From a virus, in the UHGV virus genome UHGV-0141345: DNA of 16,168 nt; one strand, written 5' to 3'. The position numbers were made by a program, and so were the translations under genes. The notes beneath the pieces were generated by a model. It saw only the letters and a list, made by a program, of their open reading frames with translations. It did no database searches and had not been told where the DNA came from. Shown here piece by piece: positions 1 through 7,895 of the stretch (position 1 is its first letter; each line of letters begins with the position of its first letter).

Positions 1-51
1 AGCTGTATCGGGTGATGAGTGGTATCTGTCAGGGAATTACGTGGGGGCTTA

Positions 52-705
52 ATGAGTAATAAATATTGCCAGGAGCTGGTGGAACTGCGGAACAAACCAG
101 CCCATGAACTGAAGGAAGTGGGTGATCAGTGGCGCACGCCGGACAACATTTTCTGGGGAATTAACACCCTGTTTGGCCCGTTTGTTCTGGATCTGTTCAC
201 TGACGGTGATAACGCCAAATGTGCCGCGTATTACACGGCGGAAGACAACGCGCTGGCGCATGACTGGTCAGAACGCCTTGCGGAGCTTAAAGGTGCTGCC
301 TTTGGTAATCCTCCATACAGCCGCGCCAGTCAGCATGAAGGGCAATACATCACCGGCATGCGTTACATCATGAAACATGCCAGTGCCATGCGTGATAAGG
401 GCGGGCGCTATGTTTTCCTGATCAAAGCTGCCACCAGCGAAGTGTGGTGGCCGGAAGATGCGGACCATATTGCTTTTATTCGCGGGCGTATTGGTTTTGA
501 ACTGCCTGCCTGGTTTATCCCGAAGGACGAGAAGCAGGTGCCGACAGGAGCTTTTTTCGCTGGTGCTATTGCTGTTTTTGACAAGACCTGGAAGGGACCG
601 GCAATCAGCTACATCGGGCGCGATGAACTTGAGGCATGTGGTGAGGCCTTTCTGGCGCAGGTTCGCCAGCAGGCAGAAAAACTTGTCAGGGAGATGGCGG
701 CATGA
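52..705 (+). CDS. Phage-type DNA N6-adenine methyltransferase (Dam family, PF05869-like)
   Basis: ORF 19..705; I place the start at ATG 52 (G-rich stretch 43-47 upstream), but GTG 19 directly after an in-frame TGA at 16-18 is possible. NPPY catalytic motif (FGNPPYS) and the W-TP ... LD ... GR-GF pattern typical of phage Dam proteins found in lambdoid nin regions. Stop overlaps the next start (ATGA at 702-705). Confidence 0.85.
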   Translation: MSNKYCQELVELRNKPAHELKEVGDQWRTPDNIFWGINTLFGPFVLDLFTDGDNAKCAAYYTAEDNALAHDWSERLAELKGAAFGNPPYSRASQHEGQYITGMRYIMKHASAMRDKGGRYVFLIKAATSEVWWPEDADHIAFIRGRIGFELPAWFIPKDEKQVPTGAFFAGAIAVFDKTWKGPAISYIGRDELEACGEAFLAQVRQQAEKLVREMAA

Positions 706-1028
706 CGACGTTAACTCAATGCCAGCAGCAGGTGCTGGATATGCTGATTTCTTACCAGAAAGAACGTGGCTTTCCGCCAACCAATCAGGAGGTGGCAACC
801 ATGCTGGGATACCGTTCAGTGAATGCAGCGGTGGAGCATCTTCGCGCACTGGAGAAAAAAGGCGTCATCACGATAAAGCGTGGCGTGGCCCGGGGGATCA
901 CGCTTCATACCGCAGTGAAGGACGACGACAGCGAAGCGGTCGGTATCATCCGCGCACTGCTTGCCGGTGAGGAGAACGCCAGGCTGCGTGCAGCCCACTG
1001 GTTACATGAGAGGGGCCTGAAAGTATGA
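702..1028 (+). CDS. LexA N-terminal DNA-binding domain protein (winged HTH) lacking the S24 peptidase domain
   Basis: 108 aa. Residues ~4-68 align well by eye with the E. coli LexA N-terminal domain (PPT-EIA--LG-RS-NAA-EHL-AL--KGVI-I--G--RGI-L). A linker-like 'LLAGEE' resembles the LexA 'VAAGEP' cleavage-site region, but there is no downstream catalytic domain. ATGA overlaps at both ends (702-705 and 1025-1028). Confidence 0.8.
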   Translation: MTTLTQCQQQVLDMLISYQKERGFPPTNQEVATMLGYRSVNAAVEHLRALEKKGVITIKRGVARGITLHTAVKDDDSEAVGIIRALLAGEENARLRAAHWLHERGLKV

Positions 1029-1414
1029 AGTTGATCCTTCCTTTCCCGCCCAGTGTGAACACGTACTGGCGACACCCCAACAAAGGGGCATTTGCTGGTA
1101 AGAGCCTGATAAGCGAGGCGGGGCGAAAATTTCAGAGCGCGGCGTGCGCAGCAATAGTTGAGCAGTTACGTCGTCTGCCGAAACCAACGTCGGCACCTGC
1201 TTCAGTGGAGATCGTGTTGTTTCCTCCGGATAACCGGATCCGCGATCTGGACAACTATAACAAGGCTCTGTTTGACGCCCTGACCCACGCGGGTGTGTGG
1301 GAAGACGACAGACAGGTGAAAAGAATGCTGGTGGAGTGGGGACCGGTTATCCCGAAAGGGAAGGTCGAGATCACTATCAGTAAGTATGAGAAACCGGCGG
1401 GTGCAGCCGCCTGA
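1025..1414 (+). CDS. rusA: Holliday-junction resolvase RusA (crossover junction endodeoxyribonuclease)
   Basis: 129 aa; RusA-family pattern (PPS-N-YWRH, DLDNY-KA-FDALT-AGVW-DD-QV). Start overlaps the upstream stop. Usual nin-region position upstream of Q. Confidence 0.85.
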   Translation: MKLILPFPPSVNTYWRHPNKGAFAGKSLISEAGRKFQSAACAAIVEQLRRLPKPTSAPASVEIVLFPPDNRIRDLDNYNKALFDALTHAGVWEDDRQVKRMLVEWGPVIPKGKVEITISKYEKPAGAAA

Positions 1415-1433
1415 TTAAGAGGAGAAACGAAGT

Positions 1434-2243
1434 ATGAATAATCTGATGGTCATTGATGGTATTGAAGTTCGTCGTGATGCTTATGGGCGTTACAGCCTGA
1501 ACGATCTGCATCGCGCAGCAGTAGCATCTGGTGCAAATGCCAGAACCAAGGAGCCAGGAAAGTTTCTTTCCAGCCAACAAACTGTTGAGCTTGTTCATGA
1601 ATTGACCAACACCCAGAATTTGGGTGTTGACCCGGTGAGTGTGATTCATGGGGGAAATGAACGGGGAACGTATGTCTGCAAGGAACTGGTGTATGCCTAT
1701 GCAATGTGGATCAGCCCGTCATTCCATCTGAAGGTGATCCGTACTTTCGACATGGTAACCAGCGCACCGGAAAAATTATCCGGACAGGCTGCTGACAAGA
1801 TGCAGGCTGGTGTGATTCTGCTGGACTTTATGCGCCGGGAATTAAACCTGTCTAACTCTTCAGTGCTTGGTGCCTGTCAGAAACTCCAGGAGGCTGTTGG
1901 CTTACCGAATCTGGCACCGCGCTATGCCATTGATGCTCCTGCTGACGCGCCTGATGGCTCAAGTCGTCCTACGCTGTCGCTGAGTGCACTGCTGAAACAG
2001 TATGGTATCCGCCTTACGGCTAATCAGGCATATCACCAGATGGCGAAGCTGGGGATCGTTGAACAACGCGAACGATACAGCCGTACCGCGATTAACAACA
2101 TCAAAAAATTCTGGTCGCTGACAGCGAAAGGTTGCATGTTCGGCAAGAACATCACCAGTCCCGCAAATCCGCGCGAGACGCAGCCGCATTTCTTCGAATC
2201 CCGATTCCCTGAGCTGTTAAAGCTGCTCGATACCGTTCATTGA
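1434..2243 (+). CDS. KilA-N domain protein with antirepressor-like (KilAC/ANT-type) C-terminal region
   Basis: 269 aa. Strong SD (AAGAGGAGA) 7 nt upstream of the ATG. N-terminus shows KilA-N hallmarks (YSLNDLHRA, GGNERGTYVCKELVYAYAMWISPSF). C-terminal half resembles an antirepressor KilAC/ANT domain. Confidence 0.8.
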   Translation: MNNLMVIDGIEVRRDAYGRYSLNDLHRAAVASGANARTKEPGKFLSSQQTVELVHELTNTQNLGVDPVSVIHGGNERGTYVCKELVYAYAMWISPSFHLKVIRTFDMVTSAPEKLSGQAADKMQAGVILLDFMRRELNLSNSSVLGACQKLQEAVGLPNLAPRYAIDAPADAPDGSSRPTLSLSALLKQYGIRLTANQAYHQMAKLGIVEQRERYSRTAINNIKKFWSLTAKGCMFGKNITSPANPRETQPHFFESRFPELLKLLDTVH

Positions 2244-2244
2244 G

Positions 2245-3240
2245 GTGACCGTGAGAGCACTACTGACCCCTGAAATTGCCCCGCGTATGGGGATCGTATT
2301 GTTCAGGCCAGGTTCAGAGCTGATGCCCCTGTTTATGCAGGGGCGTGTCCTGCTGGAGCCTGAGCCGGAACGTTATTCATCTTTCGCCAGTGGTGCCGTT
2401 CCGGCGGCATCACAACCGCTGGCGGATGATCCTGCCGTTCGGGCCGTGTTCCGCAATGAGGAAGTGATCCGTCGTGCTGGTGGCGTGGAATGTCTTGAAA
2501 GCTGGTTACTTCGTGAAAAAGGCTGCCAGTGGCCTCATTCCGACTGGCACAGCGAGAACATGACAACAATGCGACACGCGCCGGGCGCAATCCGTCTGTG
2601 CTGGCACTGCGATAACCAGCTGCGCGATCAGTTCACGGAACGGCTGGAATCAATGGCAACGGATAACTGTGCCCGCTGGGTGTTGTCTGTTGTGCGTCGG
2701 GATCTCGGTTTTGATGATAGTCACGTTGTGACAATGCCGGAACTGTGCTGGTGGCTGATTCGTAATGACCTGGCGGATGCCTTACCGGAAAGTGCAGCCC
2801 GTAAGGCACTGAGATTACCGAAGCCTGTTGTGCCGTCTGTCACCCGGGAAAGTGACCTTGTGCCTTCGGTTCCTGCCACCAGCATCATCCAGGATAAGGC
2901 GAAAAAGGTGCTGGCGCTGAAAGTGGATCCGGAGTCGCCGGAGTCTTTTATGTTACGCCCAAAACGTCGCCGCTGGGTTAATGAAAAGTACACACGCTGG
3001 GTTAAGACACAGCCGTGTGCATGTTGTGGAAAGCCTGCTGATGATCCCCACCACCTGATAGGCCACGGTCAGGGGGGAATGGGTACAAAAGCGCATGACC
3101 TCTTTGTGTTGCCTTTGTGCAGAAAGCATCACGACGAGCTGCATGCGGATACCGTGGCATTTGAAGAGAAGTATGGCTCCCAGCTGGAGCTGATATTTCG
3201 TTTTATCGATCGTGCGCTGGCAATTGGCGTGCTGGCCTGA
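2245..3240 (+). CDS. DUF968-like phage protein with C-terminal Cys/His (HNH-like) metal-binding cluster
   Basis: 331 aa ORF starting at GTG 2245 directly after the upstream stop; start uncertain (in-frame ATG at 2287). C-terminal CACCGKP...HHLIGHG...H[12 protein letters not shown] motif. Sits immediately upstream of Q, as DUF968 genes do in E. coli lambdoid prophages. Confidence 0.7.
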
Positions 3241-3257
3241 TTTTGTGGAGAACGTTG

Positions 3258-3623
3258 ATGCGTGATATTCAAATGGTTCTTGAACGTTGGGGGGCATGGG
3301 TGGCAAATAATCACGAGGATGTCACCTGGTCGTCTATTGCTGCAGGATTTAAAGGACTAATCCCTTCAAAAGTAAAATCCCGCCCGCAATGTTGTGACGA
3401 TGATGCGATGATCATTTGTGGGTGCATGGCTCGCCTGAAAAAGAACAACAGCGATTTGCACGATTTATTAGTGGATTATTATGTAGGTGGTATGACGTTT
3501 ATGGCGCTTGCCCGTAAACATGGGCGTTCTGATTGCTGGGTTGGGCGTTTATTGCAAAAGGCTGAAGGTGTAGTTGATGGCATGTTAATGATGTTAGAAA
3601 TTGAGCTAGAGATGGATCGTTAG
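3258..3623 (+). CDS. Late-gene antitermination protein Q (short Q-like, Phage_antitermQ family, QuuD-type)
   Basis: Start at ATG 3258 with GGAG 7 nt upstream (the track ORF begins at TTG 3243). 121 aa with Cys-rich segment ([16 protein letters not shown]). Position immediately upstream of the lysis region. Confidence 0.8.
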
Positions 3624-3665
3624 AAGACCTCTTATTGAGGGGGTAATTGAATCAGTTTAATGTGT

Positions 3666-3700
3666 GGGGAGTCGATTTATTCTCCCCATTTTATTTAATT
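3666..3700 (+). terminator. Putative rho-independent terminator downstream of Q
   Basis: Stem GGGGAG (3666-3671) / CTCCCC (3682-3687) with 10-nt loop, followed by ATTTTATTTAATT. The tail is U-rich only on the + strand. Lies between convergent genes Q (+) and the lipoprotein gene (-). Confidence 0.4.
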
Positions 3701-3707
3701 AATTTAC

Positions 3708-4154
3708 TTAAGGTTTTAATTCATCAAGACGTTGTTGGATAGTGTTTTTGCTTGCGTTGTCTGTTATAGCCATTTGTTGTACTTGCCCCATTGCCATTTG
3801 AGTTTCCATCCACATATCGGCCCACACTTTTGTATCGTTATTAACTTGAGCGATAGTAAATCTGACTTTTGATACCGGGGTTGTTGAATAGGCATTGCCG
3901 ATTAACATTTGTCCAAAAACAGCAGAGCCGCCTTCCAGTTCTTTACCACATATAACACTGCTGTTATCCGCGTTGTAAATTATCAACCCTCTACTATTGC
4001 AGTAATTCACAAGGGCATCTTTGACTTTATCTTTTGTCATATTTTGATAAACCCCCTCAGGTTTTCCTGATTGAGTTTTCTTTATCAATGGTACGGAAGA
4101 AGTACAACCTGAAATGATAGTTGCGCTAAGTAATAGTACAGTCATTTTATTCAT
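3708..4154 (-). CDS. Hypothetical lipoprotein (accessory gene convergent with Q)
   Basis: 148 aa. N-terminus MNKMTVLLLSATIISGC has a signal peptide and lipobox (ISG|C). The gene and surroundings are visibly AT-rich relative to flanking phage genes. No family recognised. Confidence 0.65.
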   Translation of the reverse strand: MNKMTVLLLSATIISGCTSSVPLIKKTQSGKPEGVYQNMTKDKVKDALVNYCNSRGLIIYNADNSSVICGKELEGGSAVFGQMLIGNAYSTTPVSKVRFTIAQVNNDTKVWADMWMETQMAMGQVQQMAITDNASKNTIQQRLDELKP

Positions 4155-4182
4155 GTTTCTTATCCATTGTTAAGGGCATACC

Positions 4183-4216
4183 CACACAATTATTTTTATT
4201 GGAGATGAATAATCAA
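4183..4216 (-). promoter_or_regulatory. Candidate sigma70 promoter for the lipoprotein gene
   Basis: On the - strand: -35 TTGATT (complement of 4211-4216), 16-bp spacer, -10 AATAAT (complement of 4189-4194), about 30 nt upstream of the ATG at 4154. Prediction by eye only. Confidence 0.3.
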
Positions 4217-4277
4217 CCGTTTACAATCGTAAAAAATCAAATATGCTGTTAAGAGTGGTTACTTCGCCACACAACTT

Positions 4278-4302
4278 AAACCCGCCGCTGAGCGGTTTTT
4301 TT
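4278..4302 (+). terminator. Putative rho-independent terminator (possibly tR'-like)
   Basis: Short GC stem CCGC(4285-4288)/GCGG(4292-4295) with 3-nt loop followed by T7 (4296-4302). Weak stem, strong U-tract. Confidence 0.35.
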
Positions 4303-4424
4303 GTACCTGTAAACTTGGTGCAGTACAGTAAACACGCTGGTGGTCGTGAATACTGACTTTTTATCTTGCTGGCTTTTTAGACAAGAGTTATTGGTATGTC
4401 ATGTTAACCAGAAGGGGAAAAGAC

Positions 4425-4628
4425 ATGCTAAAACAGCAAGATATGACAGAAACCGCCGCCGCAGTCCTTCATTTCTTACCTGCTGACAAGTGGGTAACGC
4501 CACGCATGATGACGAGAACTACCGGAGTAAGCGAAGCCCGGTGCCAGTTAATACTGACCCAGTTAGTTCTGGCGGGTCTGGCGAAGGGTAACGGCGGGTA
4601 CGGGAATAAATTCAGACGCTGCCAGTAA
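4425..4628 (+). CDS. Small winged-helix DNA-binding protein, tentatively FaeA/PapI-like
   Basis: 67 aa from ATG 4425, with SD-like AAGGGGA (4412-4418) 6 nt upstream (track ORF begins at ATG 4401, which lacks an SD). Pattern VLHFL...VT...GVSEAR-QLILTQLVLAGLA...GG resembles small wHTH regulators of the PapI/FaeA type. Assignment from pattern memory only. Confidence 0.45.
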   Translation: MLKQQDMTETAAAVLHFLPADKWVTPRMMTRTTGVSEARCQLILTQLVLAGLAKGNGGYGNKFRRCQ

Positions 4629-4778
4629 TGGCGGTTTCCTGCTGTGAAAATGGGCGGCTGGTGGGTGTTGGTAGCACCTGCCAGCCATTCGCTCATGCTT
4701 ACTGGTCACAAGCGAACCACGGCCCACTGCTTTAGCGCAAAAGCAGAGTGAGCCTACCAGAGTTACGCTTACTGATCC

Positions 4779-5831
4779 ATGAAAAACACTGTAAAAATAA
4801 ACAGTGTTGATTTAATCAACGCTGATTGCCTGCATTTTATTCAGTCCCTGCCTGATGATTCCATTGACCTGATTGTTACCGATCCGCCGTACTTCAAGGT
4901 GAAACCCAACGGCTGGGACAATCAGTGGAAAGGGGACGAAGATTACCTTAAGTGGCTGGATCACTGTCTGGCCCAGTTCTGGCGGGTGTTAAAACCTGCT
5001 GGAAGCCTTTACCTGTTCTGTGGGCATCGCCTGGCATCTGATATTGAGATCATGATGCGTGAACGTTTCAACGTGCTTAACCATATCATCTGGGCGAAGC
5101 CGTCCGGACGTTGGAATGGGTGTAATAAAGAAAGTCTGCGCGCATATTTTCCTGCCACAGAGCGCGTTCTGTTTGCTGAACATTACCAGGGGCCATATCG
5201 CGGCAAAAGTGACGGCTATGCGGCAAAAGAAAGGGAACTCAAACAGCACATAATGGCACCGCTGATATCGTATTTCAGGGATGCTCGTGCCGAACTGGGT
5301 ATAACGGCAAAACAAATTGCCGAAGCCACAGGTAAGAAAAATATGGTTTCCCACTGGTTTGGTGCCAGTCAGTGGCAGTTGCCGAATGAGGCTGACTATC
5401 GGAAGTTACAGGCACTGTTTTCCCGTATAGCGGCAGAGAAGTTTCAGGAACAACAACTGGAACAACCACACCACCAGCTGGTGGCATCTTATGATTCACT
5501 GAATCGCAAATATTCTGAATTGCTGGATGAGTTTAAATCTCTCCGGCGCTATTTCTCCGTATCAGTCTCCGTGCCTTATACCGATGTCTGGACGCATAAG
5601 CCCGTTCAGTTCTACCCGGGTAAACATCCGTGCGAGAAACCGGCGGATATGCTCCGGCAAATAATCAATGCCAGTAGTCGACCTGGTGATCTGGTTGCTG
5701 ATTTCTTTATGGGATCCGGTTCCACAATAAAAGCGGCAATGGCGCTGGGGCGTCAGGCGTTAGGTGTTGAACTTGAGTCAGAGCGGTTTAATCAGACGGT
5801 GAAAGAGGTAAGTGAACTGGTGGGGAAATAA
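4779..5831 (+). CDS. Beta-class DNA amino-methyltransferase (N6_N4_Mtase-like; probably N6-adenine), orphan
   Basis: 350 aa. Motif IV DPPY near the N-terminus (TDPPYF) and motif I FxGSGST near the C-terminus (FFMGSGSTIKAA), the beta-class order with a central target-recognition region. DPPY rather than SPPF favours N6-adenine. No restriction endonuclease gene is adjacent. Confidence 0.85.
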   Translation: MKNTVKINSVDLINADCLHFIQSLPDDSIDLIVTDPPYFKVKPNGWDNQWKGDEDYLKWLDHCLAQFWRVLKPAGSLYLFCGHRLASDIEIMMRERFNVLNHIIWAKPSGRWNGCNKESLRAYFPATERVLFAEHYQGPYRGKSDGYAAKERELKQHIMAPLISYFRDARAELGITAKQIAEATGKKNMVSHWFGASQWQLPNEADYRKLQALFSRIAAEKFQEQQLEQPHHQLVASYDSLNRKYSELLDEFKSLRRYFSVSVSVPYTDVWTHKPVQFYPGKHPCEKPADMLRQIINASSRPGDLVADFFMGSGSTIKAAMALGRQALGVELESERFNQTVKEVSELVGK

Positions 5832-5836
5832 TTCTG

Positions 5837-5864
5837 GTGGCCACGTTGCGTGGCCTTTTTATTT
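5837..5864 (+). terminator. Rho-independent terminator after the methyltransferase
   Basis: Perfect 7-bp stem GGCCACG (5839-5845) / CGTGGCC (5849-5855) with loop TTG, followed by TTTTTATTT. Confidence 0.6.
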
Positions 5865-5907
5865 CCAACACAGCACCCGCAAATATCGCGAGGTGAGAGA
5901 TGACGAA

Positions 5908-6243
5908 ATGCCTCATAACCCAAATACATGGCCGGACTGGCTGGAGTTGTTTCAGAGCTGGTGGCGTGGAGACACACCGCTTGGTGCAGTGATTATGTCG
6001 ATCGTTATGGCTGGTTTGCGCATCGCCTATTTTGGCGGTGGTGGTGGCTGGAAGCGAAAAACGCTCGAGATTTTGCTATGTGGCGCTCTGACGCTGACCT
6101 TTGCATCCGCTCTTGAGTATGTCGGATGGCCTAAATCGCTTTCTGTTGCCATTGGTGGTGGCGTGGGGCTGATCGGTGTCGATGCTATTCGTGGGGCTGC
6201 AATGCGAGTAATCGGTAACAAATTTGGTAGCTCGAAGGAGTAA
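5908..6243 (+). CDS. S: Holin, lambda S family (class I)
   Basis: 111 aa from ATG 5908 with SD AGGTGAGAG (5891-5899). The C-terminal two-thirds resemble lambda S (AY-G---GG-----T-------C; SL-VAIGGGVGLIGVDAI). The N-terminus differs from lambda S and has no Met-Lys-Met dual-start motif. Directly precedes R. Confidence 0.8.
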   Translation: MPHNPNTWPDWLELFQSWWRGDTPLGAVIMSIVMAGLRIAYFGGGGGWKRKTLEILLCGALTLTFASALEYVGWPKSLSVAIGGGVGLIGVDAIRGAAMRVIGNKFGSSKE

Positions 6244-6246
6244 TTT

Positions 6247-6723
6247 ATGCAGGCACTAAATTCCCAGCGTAAAGCTTTCCTGGATATGGTGGCATGGTCA
6301 GAAGGAACGGATAACGGACGGCAGAAAACCAGAAATCATGGTTATGACGTCATTGTAGGCGGAGAGCTATTTACTGATTACTCCGATCACCCTCGCAAGC
6401 TTGTCACGCTAAACCCCAAACTCAAATCAACAGCAGCCGGACGTTATCAGCTTCTTTCACGCTGGTGGGATGCTTACCGTAAGCAGCTTGGCCTGAAAGA
6501 CTTCTCCCCCAAAAGCCAGGACGCAGTGGCATTGCAGCAGATTAAAGAACGTGGCGCTTTACCGATGATTGATCGCGGTGATATCCGTCAGGCAATCGAC
6601 CGTTGCAGCAATATCTGGGCTTCACTGCCGGGGGCTGGTTATGGTCAGTTCGAGCATAAGGCTGACAACCTGATTGCAAAATTCAAAGAAGCTGGCGGAA
6701 TGGTCAGAGAGATTGAGGTATGA
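6247..6723 (+). CDS. R: Endolysin R (lytic transglycosylase), near-identical to lambda R
   Basis: 158 aa; from residue ~5 onward matches my recollection of lambda R almost exactly ([46 protein letters not shown]...). SD AAGGAG upstream. Confidence 0.95.
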
Positions 6724-7157
6724 GCAGAGTAACCGCGATTATCTCCGCTCTGGTTATCTGCATCATCGTCTGCCTGTCGTGGGCGGTCAATCATTACCGT
6801 GATAACGCCATGACCTACAAAGAGCAGCGCGATAAAGCCACATCCATCATCGCTGATATGCAGAAGCGTCAACGTGATGTAGCAGAACTCGACGCCAGAT
6901 ACACAAAGGAGCTTGCTGATGCTAACGCGACTATCGAAAGTCTCCGTGCTGATGTTTCTGCTGGTCGTAAGCGCCTGCAAGTCGCCGCCACCTGTGCAAA
7001 GTCAACGACCGGAGCCAGCGGCATGGGCGATGGAGAAAGCCCAAGACTTACAGCAGATGCTGAACTCAATTATTACCGTCTCCGAAGTGGAATCGACAAG
7101 ATAACCGCGCAGGTTAACTACCTGCAGGAGTACATCAGGACGCAATGCCTGAAATAA
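6720..7157 (+). CDS. Rz: Spanin inner-membrane subunit Rz
   Basis: 145 aa; N-terminus [30 protein letters not shown] matches lambda Rz. Start overlaps the R stop (ATGA). Confidence 0.9.
6919..7104 (+). CDS. Rz1: Spanin outer-membrane lipoprotein Rz1, embedded in the +1 frame of Rz
   Basis: 61 aa from ATG 6919. Signal peptide with lipobox (VVSAC) followed by a Pro-rich segment ([13 protein letters not shown]). Entirely nested inside Rz, as in lambda. Confidence 0.75.
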
Positions 7158-7358: not shown

Positions 7359-7895
7359 ATGAAATCATTAACCCTCTTCAATCAACCAATTCGTATCGGT
7401 GAAGATGGCATGATCTGCCTCACTGATATGTGGAAAGCCAGTGGTAAAAGTGAATCTGAATCGCCTTACCACTACCTGCGAAACAAGCAGACCAAAGAGT
7501 TCTTAGCCGAGCTGGAGAAAAACCACGAATCTGTGGTTTTTACTGAGCGCGGTGTACACGGTGGAACATATGGCGGGAAGTTTGTTGCTTACGATTATGC
7601 GGCTTGGTTAAACCCCGGGTTCAAGTACGCGGCCTATAAAGTCCTCGATGACTACTTCACCGGAGAACTTCAGCATCGCAACAGCTTAAGTGCGCAGCTC
7701 AACATGAAATGTCATGAGTTTGACCAGAAGAAAGACATGGCGAGCTTCTGCGGACAAGGGCTGGCAGCATGGCGCTATACGAAGCCAGTGTTGGTCGCTG
7801 AGATTAACTCCCTGGCTAACCAGCTGCAGATAACGATCCCCGGGCTGTCCGGTATTTGCCGGTATGAAATTACCGGAAGGCGCGGTCGTTACTGA
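7359..7895 (+). CDS. KilA-N domain protein (second copy in window)
   Basis: 178 aa; KilA-N hallmarks (ICLTDMWKASGK, ERGVHGGTYGGKFVAYDYAAWLNPGFKYAAYKVL). Lies between the lysis cassette and cos. Followed by hairpin GCAGCCC/GGGCTGC at 7914-7936. Confidence 0.75.
   Translation: MKSLTLFNQPIRIGEDGMICLTDMWKASGKSESESPYHYLRNKQTKEFLAELEKNHESVVFTERGVHGGTYGGKFVAYDYAAWLNPGFKYAAYKVLDDYFTGELQHRNSLSAQLNMKCHEFDQKKDMASFCGQGLAAWRYTKPVLVAEINSLANQLQITIPGLSGICRYEITGRRGRY

Follow-up and report, generated by a model that had tools for sequence, protein, structure and literature searches.

The 16,168-nucleotide stretch of the virus genome UHGV-0141345 analysed here in its entirety (16.2 kb; hereafter the window) belongs to a lambdoid E. 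coli prophage of the SfV / CPS-53 / mEp460 / Stx2-phage type, and carries two orphan N6-adenine DNA methyltransferase genes on its plus strand. The first, which encodes a protein of 217 amino acids (aa), occupies positions 52-705, with its ATG at 52 and its stop at 705, and lies in the nin-like delayed-early operon; the second, which encodes a beta-class enzyme of 350 aa, occupies positions 4779-5831, with its ATG at 4779, and lies between the late-gene antiterminator gene Q and the holin gene S. A first-pass annotation had described these genes as encoding unrelated enzymes of two families at early and late positions, and the family assignments, motifs and gene order reported below bear out this description. 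The best chromosomal match to bases 2-6300 of the window is E. coli RL465 (99.0% identity); the RefSeq annotation of this strain gives both methyltransferase open reading frames (ORFs) the same boundaries as in the window, and immunity and replication genes of the usual kind lie upstream of the matching segment.

The early protein matches the Pfam family PF05869 ('Dam') with E = 1.1e-45 (155.7 bits, cutoff 28.1) and the NCBI equivalog model TIGR01712 (phage_N6A_met) with 255.6 bits against a cutoff of 97.05. An alignment of nine members was built from the window protein and eight homologues, from Salmonella and Cronobacter (both close), T1, VT2-Sakai, PY54 (gp55), S. aureus phage 88, a Chi-like Salmonella phage and a Pseudomonas phage; the early enzyme retains 14 of the 14 columns that are invariant among these diverse homologues. 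Residues common to all nine members include W27 and T29 of the DxWxTP motif, D47, N54, the N86, P87 and P88 of NPPY, G145, R146 and F149, and the conserved motifs DxWxTP, LD, NPPY (aa 86-89, nucleotides 307-318) and GRxxF are all present. The label 'Dam-type', or 'Dam-family', given to this enzyme in the first-pass annotation is correct by Pfam family name only: PF05869 is the sole Pfam match of ORF 19-705 at E <= 0.01 and PF02086 (MethyltransfD12) was not found in it, so that the protein is not a homologue of the Dam enzymes of E. coli or T4. The start of the gene overlaps the stop of an upstream PerC/YfdN-like gene (TAATG), of which only the 3' end lies in the window, likewise on the plus strand, and its stop overlaps the start of a LexA-like gene (ATGA). 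Homologues with at least 75% identity occur in E. coli, Salmonella, Cronobacter, Atlantibacter and others, where they are annotated only as 'phage N-6-adenine-methyltransferase', and Chi-like and related lytic phages encode homologues with 40-48% identity. We take the early enzyme to be the intact counterpart of the yfdM remnant in the CPS-53 prophage of K-12. Searches of the PDB with the single sequence and with a nine-sequence profile found no solved relative.

The best match of the early protein in PHROGs is phrog_33262, which is labelled 'phosphoadenosine phosphosulfate reductase'. The profile of this group describes a fusion architecture of 495 residues, of which only the C-terminal 210 match the early protein; as a result, the stand-alone methyltransferase is wrongly called a PAPS reductase in RefSeq phage records, for example those of cdtI, mEp460 and SfV NC_003444.

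Like the early enzyme, the M.EcoVT2Dam, T1 Dam, HP1 Dam and PamA proteins of the PF05869 / TIGR01712 family are small orphan N6-adenine methyltransferases that occupy early or replication-proximal positions in temperate phages. T1 Dam and HP1 Dam are GATC-specific. The VT2 Dam has been reported to be GATC-specific (PMC6602927), and GATC methylation has been reported by DpnI assay for the S. aureus protein PamA, of 141 aa with NPPY at residues 64-67 (PMC12435837), a description that ORF034 of phage 88 fits exactly in both length and motif position. The early enzyme is 31% identical to VT2-Sakai Dam by BLASTP (27% in the multiple alignment), 24% identical to T1 Dam and 36% identical to phage 88 ORF034; VT2 and T1 Dam share 33% identity, and the characterised relatives are therefore as far from each other as they are from the window protein. 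Because these members, equally divergent from one another, are all GATC-specific, the early enzyme is itself most likely to be GATC-specific, a prediction from sequence that we hold with reasonable rather than high confidence. Our search of the literature on PF05869 and TIGR01712 found no specificity data for the subfamily to which the early enzyme belongs. The window contains 58 GATC sites, where base composition predicts 62 and a Markov model 79, so that the site is neither avoided nor enriched, and the counts of GATC and other four-letter palindromes gave no indication of specificity. As a separate observation, CTAG occurs once in the whole window, whereas approximately 62 occurrences would follow from base composition and 4.2 from a second-order Markov estimate. 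Depletion of CTAG is usual among enterobacteria.

The late ORF matches PF01555 (N6_N4_Mtase) with E = 1.4e-42 and has the beta-class order of motifs, with an N-terminal DPPY (aa 35-38, nucleotides 4881-4892), a target-recognition region and a C-terminal FxGxG motif, found here within FFMGSGST (aa 309-316, nucleotides 5703-5726). The protein is 99% identical to orf48 of SfV and 52.7% identical to PhiARM81ld_p56 from Aeromonas. Its identity to M.EcoGII is 81% over 349 aa with 2 gaps, falling to 77% in the target-recognition region (a predicted four-helix bundle, aa 160-237) and 72% in the linker; its identity to Anc291, a reconstructed ancestor with experimental activity, is 89% overall and 86% in the target-recognition region, and to SUPREM it is 71%, all of these values being approximate since the three sequences were taken from a machine-read PDF (Supplementary Table S1 of PMC11551740). 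M.EcoGII and M.EcoGI, from prophages of E. coli O104:H4 C227-11, are prophage-borne beta-class PF01555 enzymes of 349-350 aa, like the late enzyme, and M.EcoGII methylates A in any context (PMC5778455). In experiments, PhiARM81ld_p56 and the Serratia protein PhiOS31_p25 proved to be non-specific or extremely relaxed in their specificity (PMC7556043), and experimentally active, non-specific enzymes of the M.EcoGII family include Anc291 and SUPREM (PMC11551740). The sequence of the late enzyme identifies it as a member of this family of non-specific adenine methyltransferases; non-specific relatives at 53-89% identity bracket it in sequence space, and it probably methylates adenine whatever the context.

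The two enzymes show no similarity to each other by BLASTP (best E = 0.086), and a profile-profile comparison of their families with hhalign gave no relation (probability 0.14%), which supports the description 'unrelated' at the level of sequence; a shared Rossmann fold is assumed for both. The possibility, raised in the first-pass annotation, that one of the two ORFs is catalytically dead found no support, the early protein keeping all of its invariant residues and the late one its DPPY and FxGxG motifs. Its statement that neither gene has an adjacent endonuclease also stands: searches with Pfam, NCBIfam, PHROGs and PADLOC found no match to a restriction endonuclease or defence system among the neighbouring genes. 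The only PADLOC defence-protein matches near the pair are the two methyltransferases themselves, and the other neighbours have ordinary phage functions. The genes that follow the early methyltransferase in the delayed-early operon, all on the plus strand, encode a LexA-like DNA-binding protein (702-1028), RusA (1025-1414), a KilA-N protein (1434-2243), a DUF968/HNH-like protein (2245-3240) and the antiterminator Q (3243-3623, 126 aa, PF06530), with which the operon ends; RusA and the DUF968/HNH-like protein are ordinary lambdoid nin-region nucleases. A cognate endonuclease gene adjoining either methyltransferase, as expected of a type II restriction-modification system, was not found, and a hidden restriction-modification or defence system was rejected, since no neighbour matches a model of this kind.

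The position of the late gene suggests how its expression may be controlled. A candidate late promoter pR' of sigma-70 type (4220-4247, plus strand), identified by its match to the consensus, consists of TTTACA and TATGCT separated by a 16-nt spacer, and is followed by a tR'-like intrinsic terminator (4284-4303, plus strand) with the hairpin GCCGCTGAGCGGT and a run of T. A strong intrinsic terminator (5839-5865, plus strand), GGCCACGTTGCGTGGCC with a T-rich tail, lies directly after the stop codon of the methyltransferase; both terminators have homologues that the SfV record annotates as 'putative rho-independent terminator', the first of them downstream of Q. A small winged-helix ORF and the late methyltransferase are thus enclosed between pR' and the tR' hairpin on one side and the second terminator on the other, with holin S immediately downstream. 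Homology to SfV is broken across Q and up to position 4278 and restarts exactly at the first terminator, placing the candidate pR' within a Q-specific segment not common to SfV; the break in homology and the match of the terminators form the pattern expected of a Q-specific pR'/qut module followed by tR'. From this arrangement, the late methyltransferase would come first among the large genes on the late, Q-dependent transcript, and the different timing of the two enzymes proposed in the first-pass annotation is well supported by gene position. M.EcoGII is unexpressed in its lysogen and slows growth when expressed, and, according to a proposal by its authors, induction turns on enzymes of this kind so that restriction is overcome (PMC5778455); a homologue 99% identical to M.EcoGI is transcriptionally silent in the ST131 strain EC958 (PMC4659465).

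The pairing of the two genes is an ordinary and already documented feature of lambdoid prophages, and both families have been described. The SfV genome (Shigella flexneri phage V, GenBank U82619) contains the same two genes, named 'dam' and 'orf48', with gene order and flanking terminators unchanged, and its DNA is approximately 97% identical to that of the window over the shared segments; it differs in its Q gene, in the segment between Q and pR', in the lack of a reverse-strand lipoprotein gene described below, and in its head genes, which are unlike the lambda-type Nu1, A, W, B, C, D and E of the window. The same segment is found in the phages SfV, cdtI and mEp460, in several ECOR-derived phages and in Stx2c phages. 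Stx2a phages carry an M.EcoGII-type allele of the late gene; one of these, the O157:H7 phage WGPS2, has the same two-enzyme backbone, with a 99%-identical copy of the early enzyme of the window beside a methyltransferase that is 93% identical to M.EcoGII, occupies the same position as the late enzyme and lies just upstream of tRNAs and stx2AB. The order of small ORF, methyltransferase and holin is also seen in PY54, PhiARM81ld and WGPS2, and PhiARM81ld_p56 and PhiOS31_p25 share with the late enzyme both its family and its position directly upstream of a holin/lysis cassette (PMC7556043). PY54, a Yersinia linear-plasmid prophage (L089, NC_005069), has one enzyme of each family: gp55 (38596-39228) is PF05869-like and 28% identical to the early enzyme, and gp60 (41231-42304), upstream of the holin gene, is M.EcoGII-like and 60% identical to the late enzyme. 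The presence of both families in this distantly related phage indicates that the combination recurs beyond one phage lineage.

To examine the linkage of the pair we used a sample of 72 viral contigs (IMG/VR loci) with a late methyltransferase at least 98% identical to that of the window and at least 5 kb of upstream sequence. The early gene, again at 98% identity or more, is present in 51 of these contigs. It is cleanly absent from 13 (L015, L024, L042, L043 and others), in which the YfdN-like gene directly abuts the LexA-like gene; three more (L035, L040 and L047) keep only a yfdN-'dam deletion remnant, which encodes a 109-aa fusion ending in ...RQAEKLVREMAA, and five differ from the early-gene layout in other ways. 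The early gene is a dispensable presence/absence cassette bounded by overlapping stop and start codons, and the two enzymes probably do not form an obligate functional pair. Among 5426 complete E. coli genomes, 1725 carry the early gene, with 95-99% nucleotide conservation, 1136 carry this late allele, and 290 carry at least 80% of bases 1-6300, the 6.3-kb segment that spans both.

Where the yfdN-like gene meets the early methyltransferase gene, there is a run of five G (G5) at positions 43-47. Public databases hold PerC-Dam fusion proteins of 379-380 aa, one of which (P0012) is found on 12 contigs. A fusion of this kind was considered for the window and rejected, as it would need one extra G and the run is G5 in 51 of 51 loci with a matching junction; this uniformity suggests that the PerC-Dam fusions are rare variants or sequencing errors.

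From gene integrity, family membership, motif conservation, gene order, terminators and distribution, all of which are observed directly, we infer the specificity of both enzymes, the Q-dependent expression of the second and an anti-restriction benefit, and propose a model in which two intact, unrelated orphan enzymes, an early one of GATC type and a late non-specific one, act at successive stages of phage growth. The location of the early gene in the delayed-early, nin-like operon means that its product would be made during the replication of phage DNA, where it would methylate GATC and top up the activity of the host Dam on rapidly replicating genomes; the virion DNA of lambda and P22 has been reported to be under-methylated by host Dam (bioRxiv 10.1101/2020.10.05.325894). 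In the lysogen, transcription would halt at tR', keeping the toxic late enzyme silent; after induction, RNA polymerase modified by Q would pass tR' and allow the late enzyme to be made, which would then methylate adenines across the progeny genomes just before packaging and so protect them from the adenine-sensitive restriction systems of the next host. We consider this explanation as a whole to be probable. The broad anti-restriction coverage suggested in the first-pass annotation fits the published picture for the M.EcoGII family, where it has already been put forward (PMC5778455, PMC4659465). Its suggestion of distinct targets fares less well and is unlikely, because members of the M.EcoGII family down to approximately 53% identity methylate nearly any adenine (PMC5778455, PMC7556043), so that the probable targets of the late enzyme, all adenines, include those of the early one. 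The converse outcome that it named, methylation of the same motif by both enzymes, would apply in one sense only, in that one set of targets probably lies inside the other.

Several observations weigh against this explanation. The early enzyme is only 24-36% identical to its characterised relatives, which makes its specificity an extrapolation, and the AlphaFold2 model of the protein, built from an alignment restricted to homologues with at least 75% identity, is unusable (mean pLDDT 38). The late enzyme belongs to a different allele group from M.EcoGII (the SfV orf48 type) and differs from it at 23% of positions in the target-recognition region; the machine-read M.EcoGII sequence behind this figure also contains small errors. 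The candidate pR' matches the consensus at 9 of 12 positions, in a region where promoter-like sites are not enriched (12 found, 9.0 expected). Finally, the early gene is missing from 21 of the 72 close relatives, and any benefit that it confers must therefore be conditional.

The divergence of the early enzyme also lends weight to the best-surviving alternative, in which this PF05869 enzyme does not recognise GATC and the phage would lay down two different methylation patterns: the early one would be site-specific and serve regulation or a dedicated form of protection, and the late one would cover the DNA indiscriminately. The subfamily of the early enzyme differs from VT2 Dam and PamA in an insertion after NPPY (QHEGQYITGM) and in a C-terminal extension of approximately 50 aa, and a second GATC enzyme would seem superfluous where the host already has Dam. 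Against this, characterised members that differ from one another just as widely, such as VT2 and T1 Dam, have all been reported to be GATC-specific, and GATC is neither avoided nor enriched in the window. We regard this alternative as unlikely, though it is the one to be taken most seriously.

Less likely again, to our minds, is that the late enzyme is gated by a dedicated local module, similar in function to Mu com/mom, and/or that the early enzyme is specific for a site other than GATC, in which case the two would make up an ordered two-step methylation programme and not a pair of independent accessory genes. The putative module would consist of the winged-helix protein and a structured leader with a poor ribosome-binding site. 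The small ORF (4401-4628, plus strand; phrog_331) encodes 75 aa from the ATG at 4401, or 67 aa from the alternative start at 4425 that most databases prefer, and is found upstream of the late methyltransferase in 72 of the 72 related viral loci, in two allele groups that are approximately 97% and 54% identical and in which RCQLILTQL is invariant. Its AlphaFold2 model (pLDDT 86) is a stand-alone winged helix with generic matches only (Zalpha, TrmB, IclR, MarR and PefI), and no similarity links the protein to its positional counterparts, ORF59 in PY54 and a Com-like protein in PhiARM81ld. The 150-nt leader that follows (4629-4778, plus strand) folds at -64.8 kcal/mol, more stably than shuffled controls (z = -2.76), and contains a long hairpin, GGCUGGUGGGUGUUGG...CCUGCCAGCC; its relatives are too similar to one another for a test of covariation. 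No clear Shine-Dalgarno sequence was seen before the ATG at 4779, and an Rfam scan of the window found no known RNA. The mom and com genes of phage Mu direct a late, tightly gated and toxic DNA modification that is off in lysogens and counters restriction. Like mom, the late gene would place a potentially toxic and broad adenine modification at the end of a regulatory cascade; mom differs in that it carries out carbamoylmethylation rather than methylation, encodes an unrelated protein and is under different control (Com and Dam/OxyR). The late gene of PhiARM81ld is preceded by a Com-like translational regulator, that of the window by the winged-helix ORF and structured leader.

Returning to the model of an early GATC enzyme and a late non-specific one, its early half would be superfluous if the early methyltransferase were a functionless or decaying passenger of a mosaic cassette and only the late enzyme mattered to the phage. 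The absence of the early gene from 21 of the 72 relatives, cleanly in 13 and with remnants in three, speaks for this. The ORF is, however, intact with all of its invariant residues and is highly conserved in the E. coli genomes that carry it, its overlapping start and stop codons couple its translation to that of both neighbours, and its homologues have been kept across Salmonella, Cronobacter, Atlantibacter and Chi-like lytic phages; we find this alternative improbable. More doubtful still is a reading in which the main role of either enzyme, or of both, is played in the lysogen through epigenetic control of host or prophage genes, in the manner of PamA or M.EcoGIII (E. coli O104:H4), and not against restriction. 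PamA, a prophage enzyme of PF05869 type, alters host virulence gene expression (PMC12435837), and in the SfV record dam has an annotated upstream promoter of its own; against a regulatory role, the host Dam already methylates GATC fully in E. coli, lysogens show neither a methylation signal nor a transcript from genes of M.EcoGI/II type (PMC5778455, PMC4659465), and the late gene sits behind a terminator in the late operon. Least probable of all is that the SfV orf48 allele group has gained a defined sequence preference: this enzyme diverges from M.EcoGII by 19% overall, with the greater divergence in its target-recognition region noted above, and we found no published methylome data for this exact allele group, but non-specific members lie on both sides of it, from PhiARM81ld_p56 and SUPREM to M.EcoGII and Anc291 (PMC11551740, PMC7556043).

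Both enzyme families are familiar ones, the late one supplies a commercial reagent (EcoGII), and public phage genomes have contained the two-gene backbone since the deposit of SfV. The early gene is present in about one third of complete E. coli genomes and this late allele in about one fifth. At this frequency, induced phages of this type, Stx2a and Stx2c converting phages among them, may carry heavily adenine-methylated DNA when they leave the cell; if so, the methylation would affect which hosts they can infect, how they transduce across restriction barriers and how sensitive they are to m6A-dependent type IV defence systems.

The remaining genes of the window lie between Q and the candidate late promoter and downstream of the late methyltransferase. 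The reverse-strand gene at 3708-4154 (phrog_3152) encodes a predicted lipoprotein of 148 aa with a signal peptide and the lipobox ISGC, and has no match in Pfam, NCBIfam or the PDB. It is AT-rich, with a GC content of 0.39-0.40 where the early and lysis region is otherwise at approximately 0.48-0.57, and is a moron inserted between Q and the candidate pR'. The gene travels with this allele of Q, in 9 of the 72 loci; at the same site WGPS2 has two different reverse-strand genes, and the site thus looks like a hot spot for inserted genes.

On the other side of the late methyltransferase, and all on the plus strand, the lysis genes for holin S, endolysin and Rz/Rz1 occupy 5908-7157, with holin S (5908-6243) the first gene of this S, R, Rz/Rz1 cassette. 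They are followed by a KilA-N/ORF11CD3 gene (7359-7895) and then by head genes of lambda type (Nu1, A, W, B, C, D, E and FII). The KilA-N/ORF11CD3 gene lies between Rz/Rz1 and Nu1, adjoining the expected cos region; the E. coli chromosome that best matches the window lacks it and has a different gene in its place, and it gave a weak PADLOC match to PDC-S22 (E = 1.4e-8). An Rz1-type lipoprotein ORF of 63 aa (6913-7104, ...LLVVSACKS...) is embedded in the +1 frame within Rz (6720-7157), and this overlap is the classical embedded spanin arrangement.

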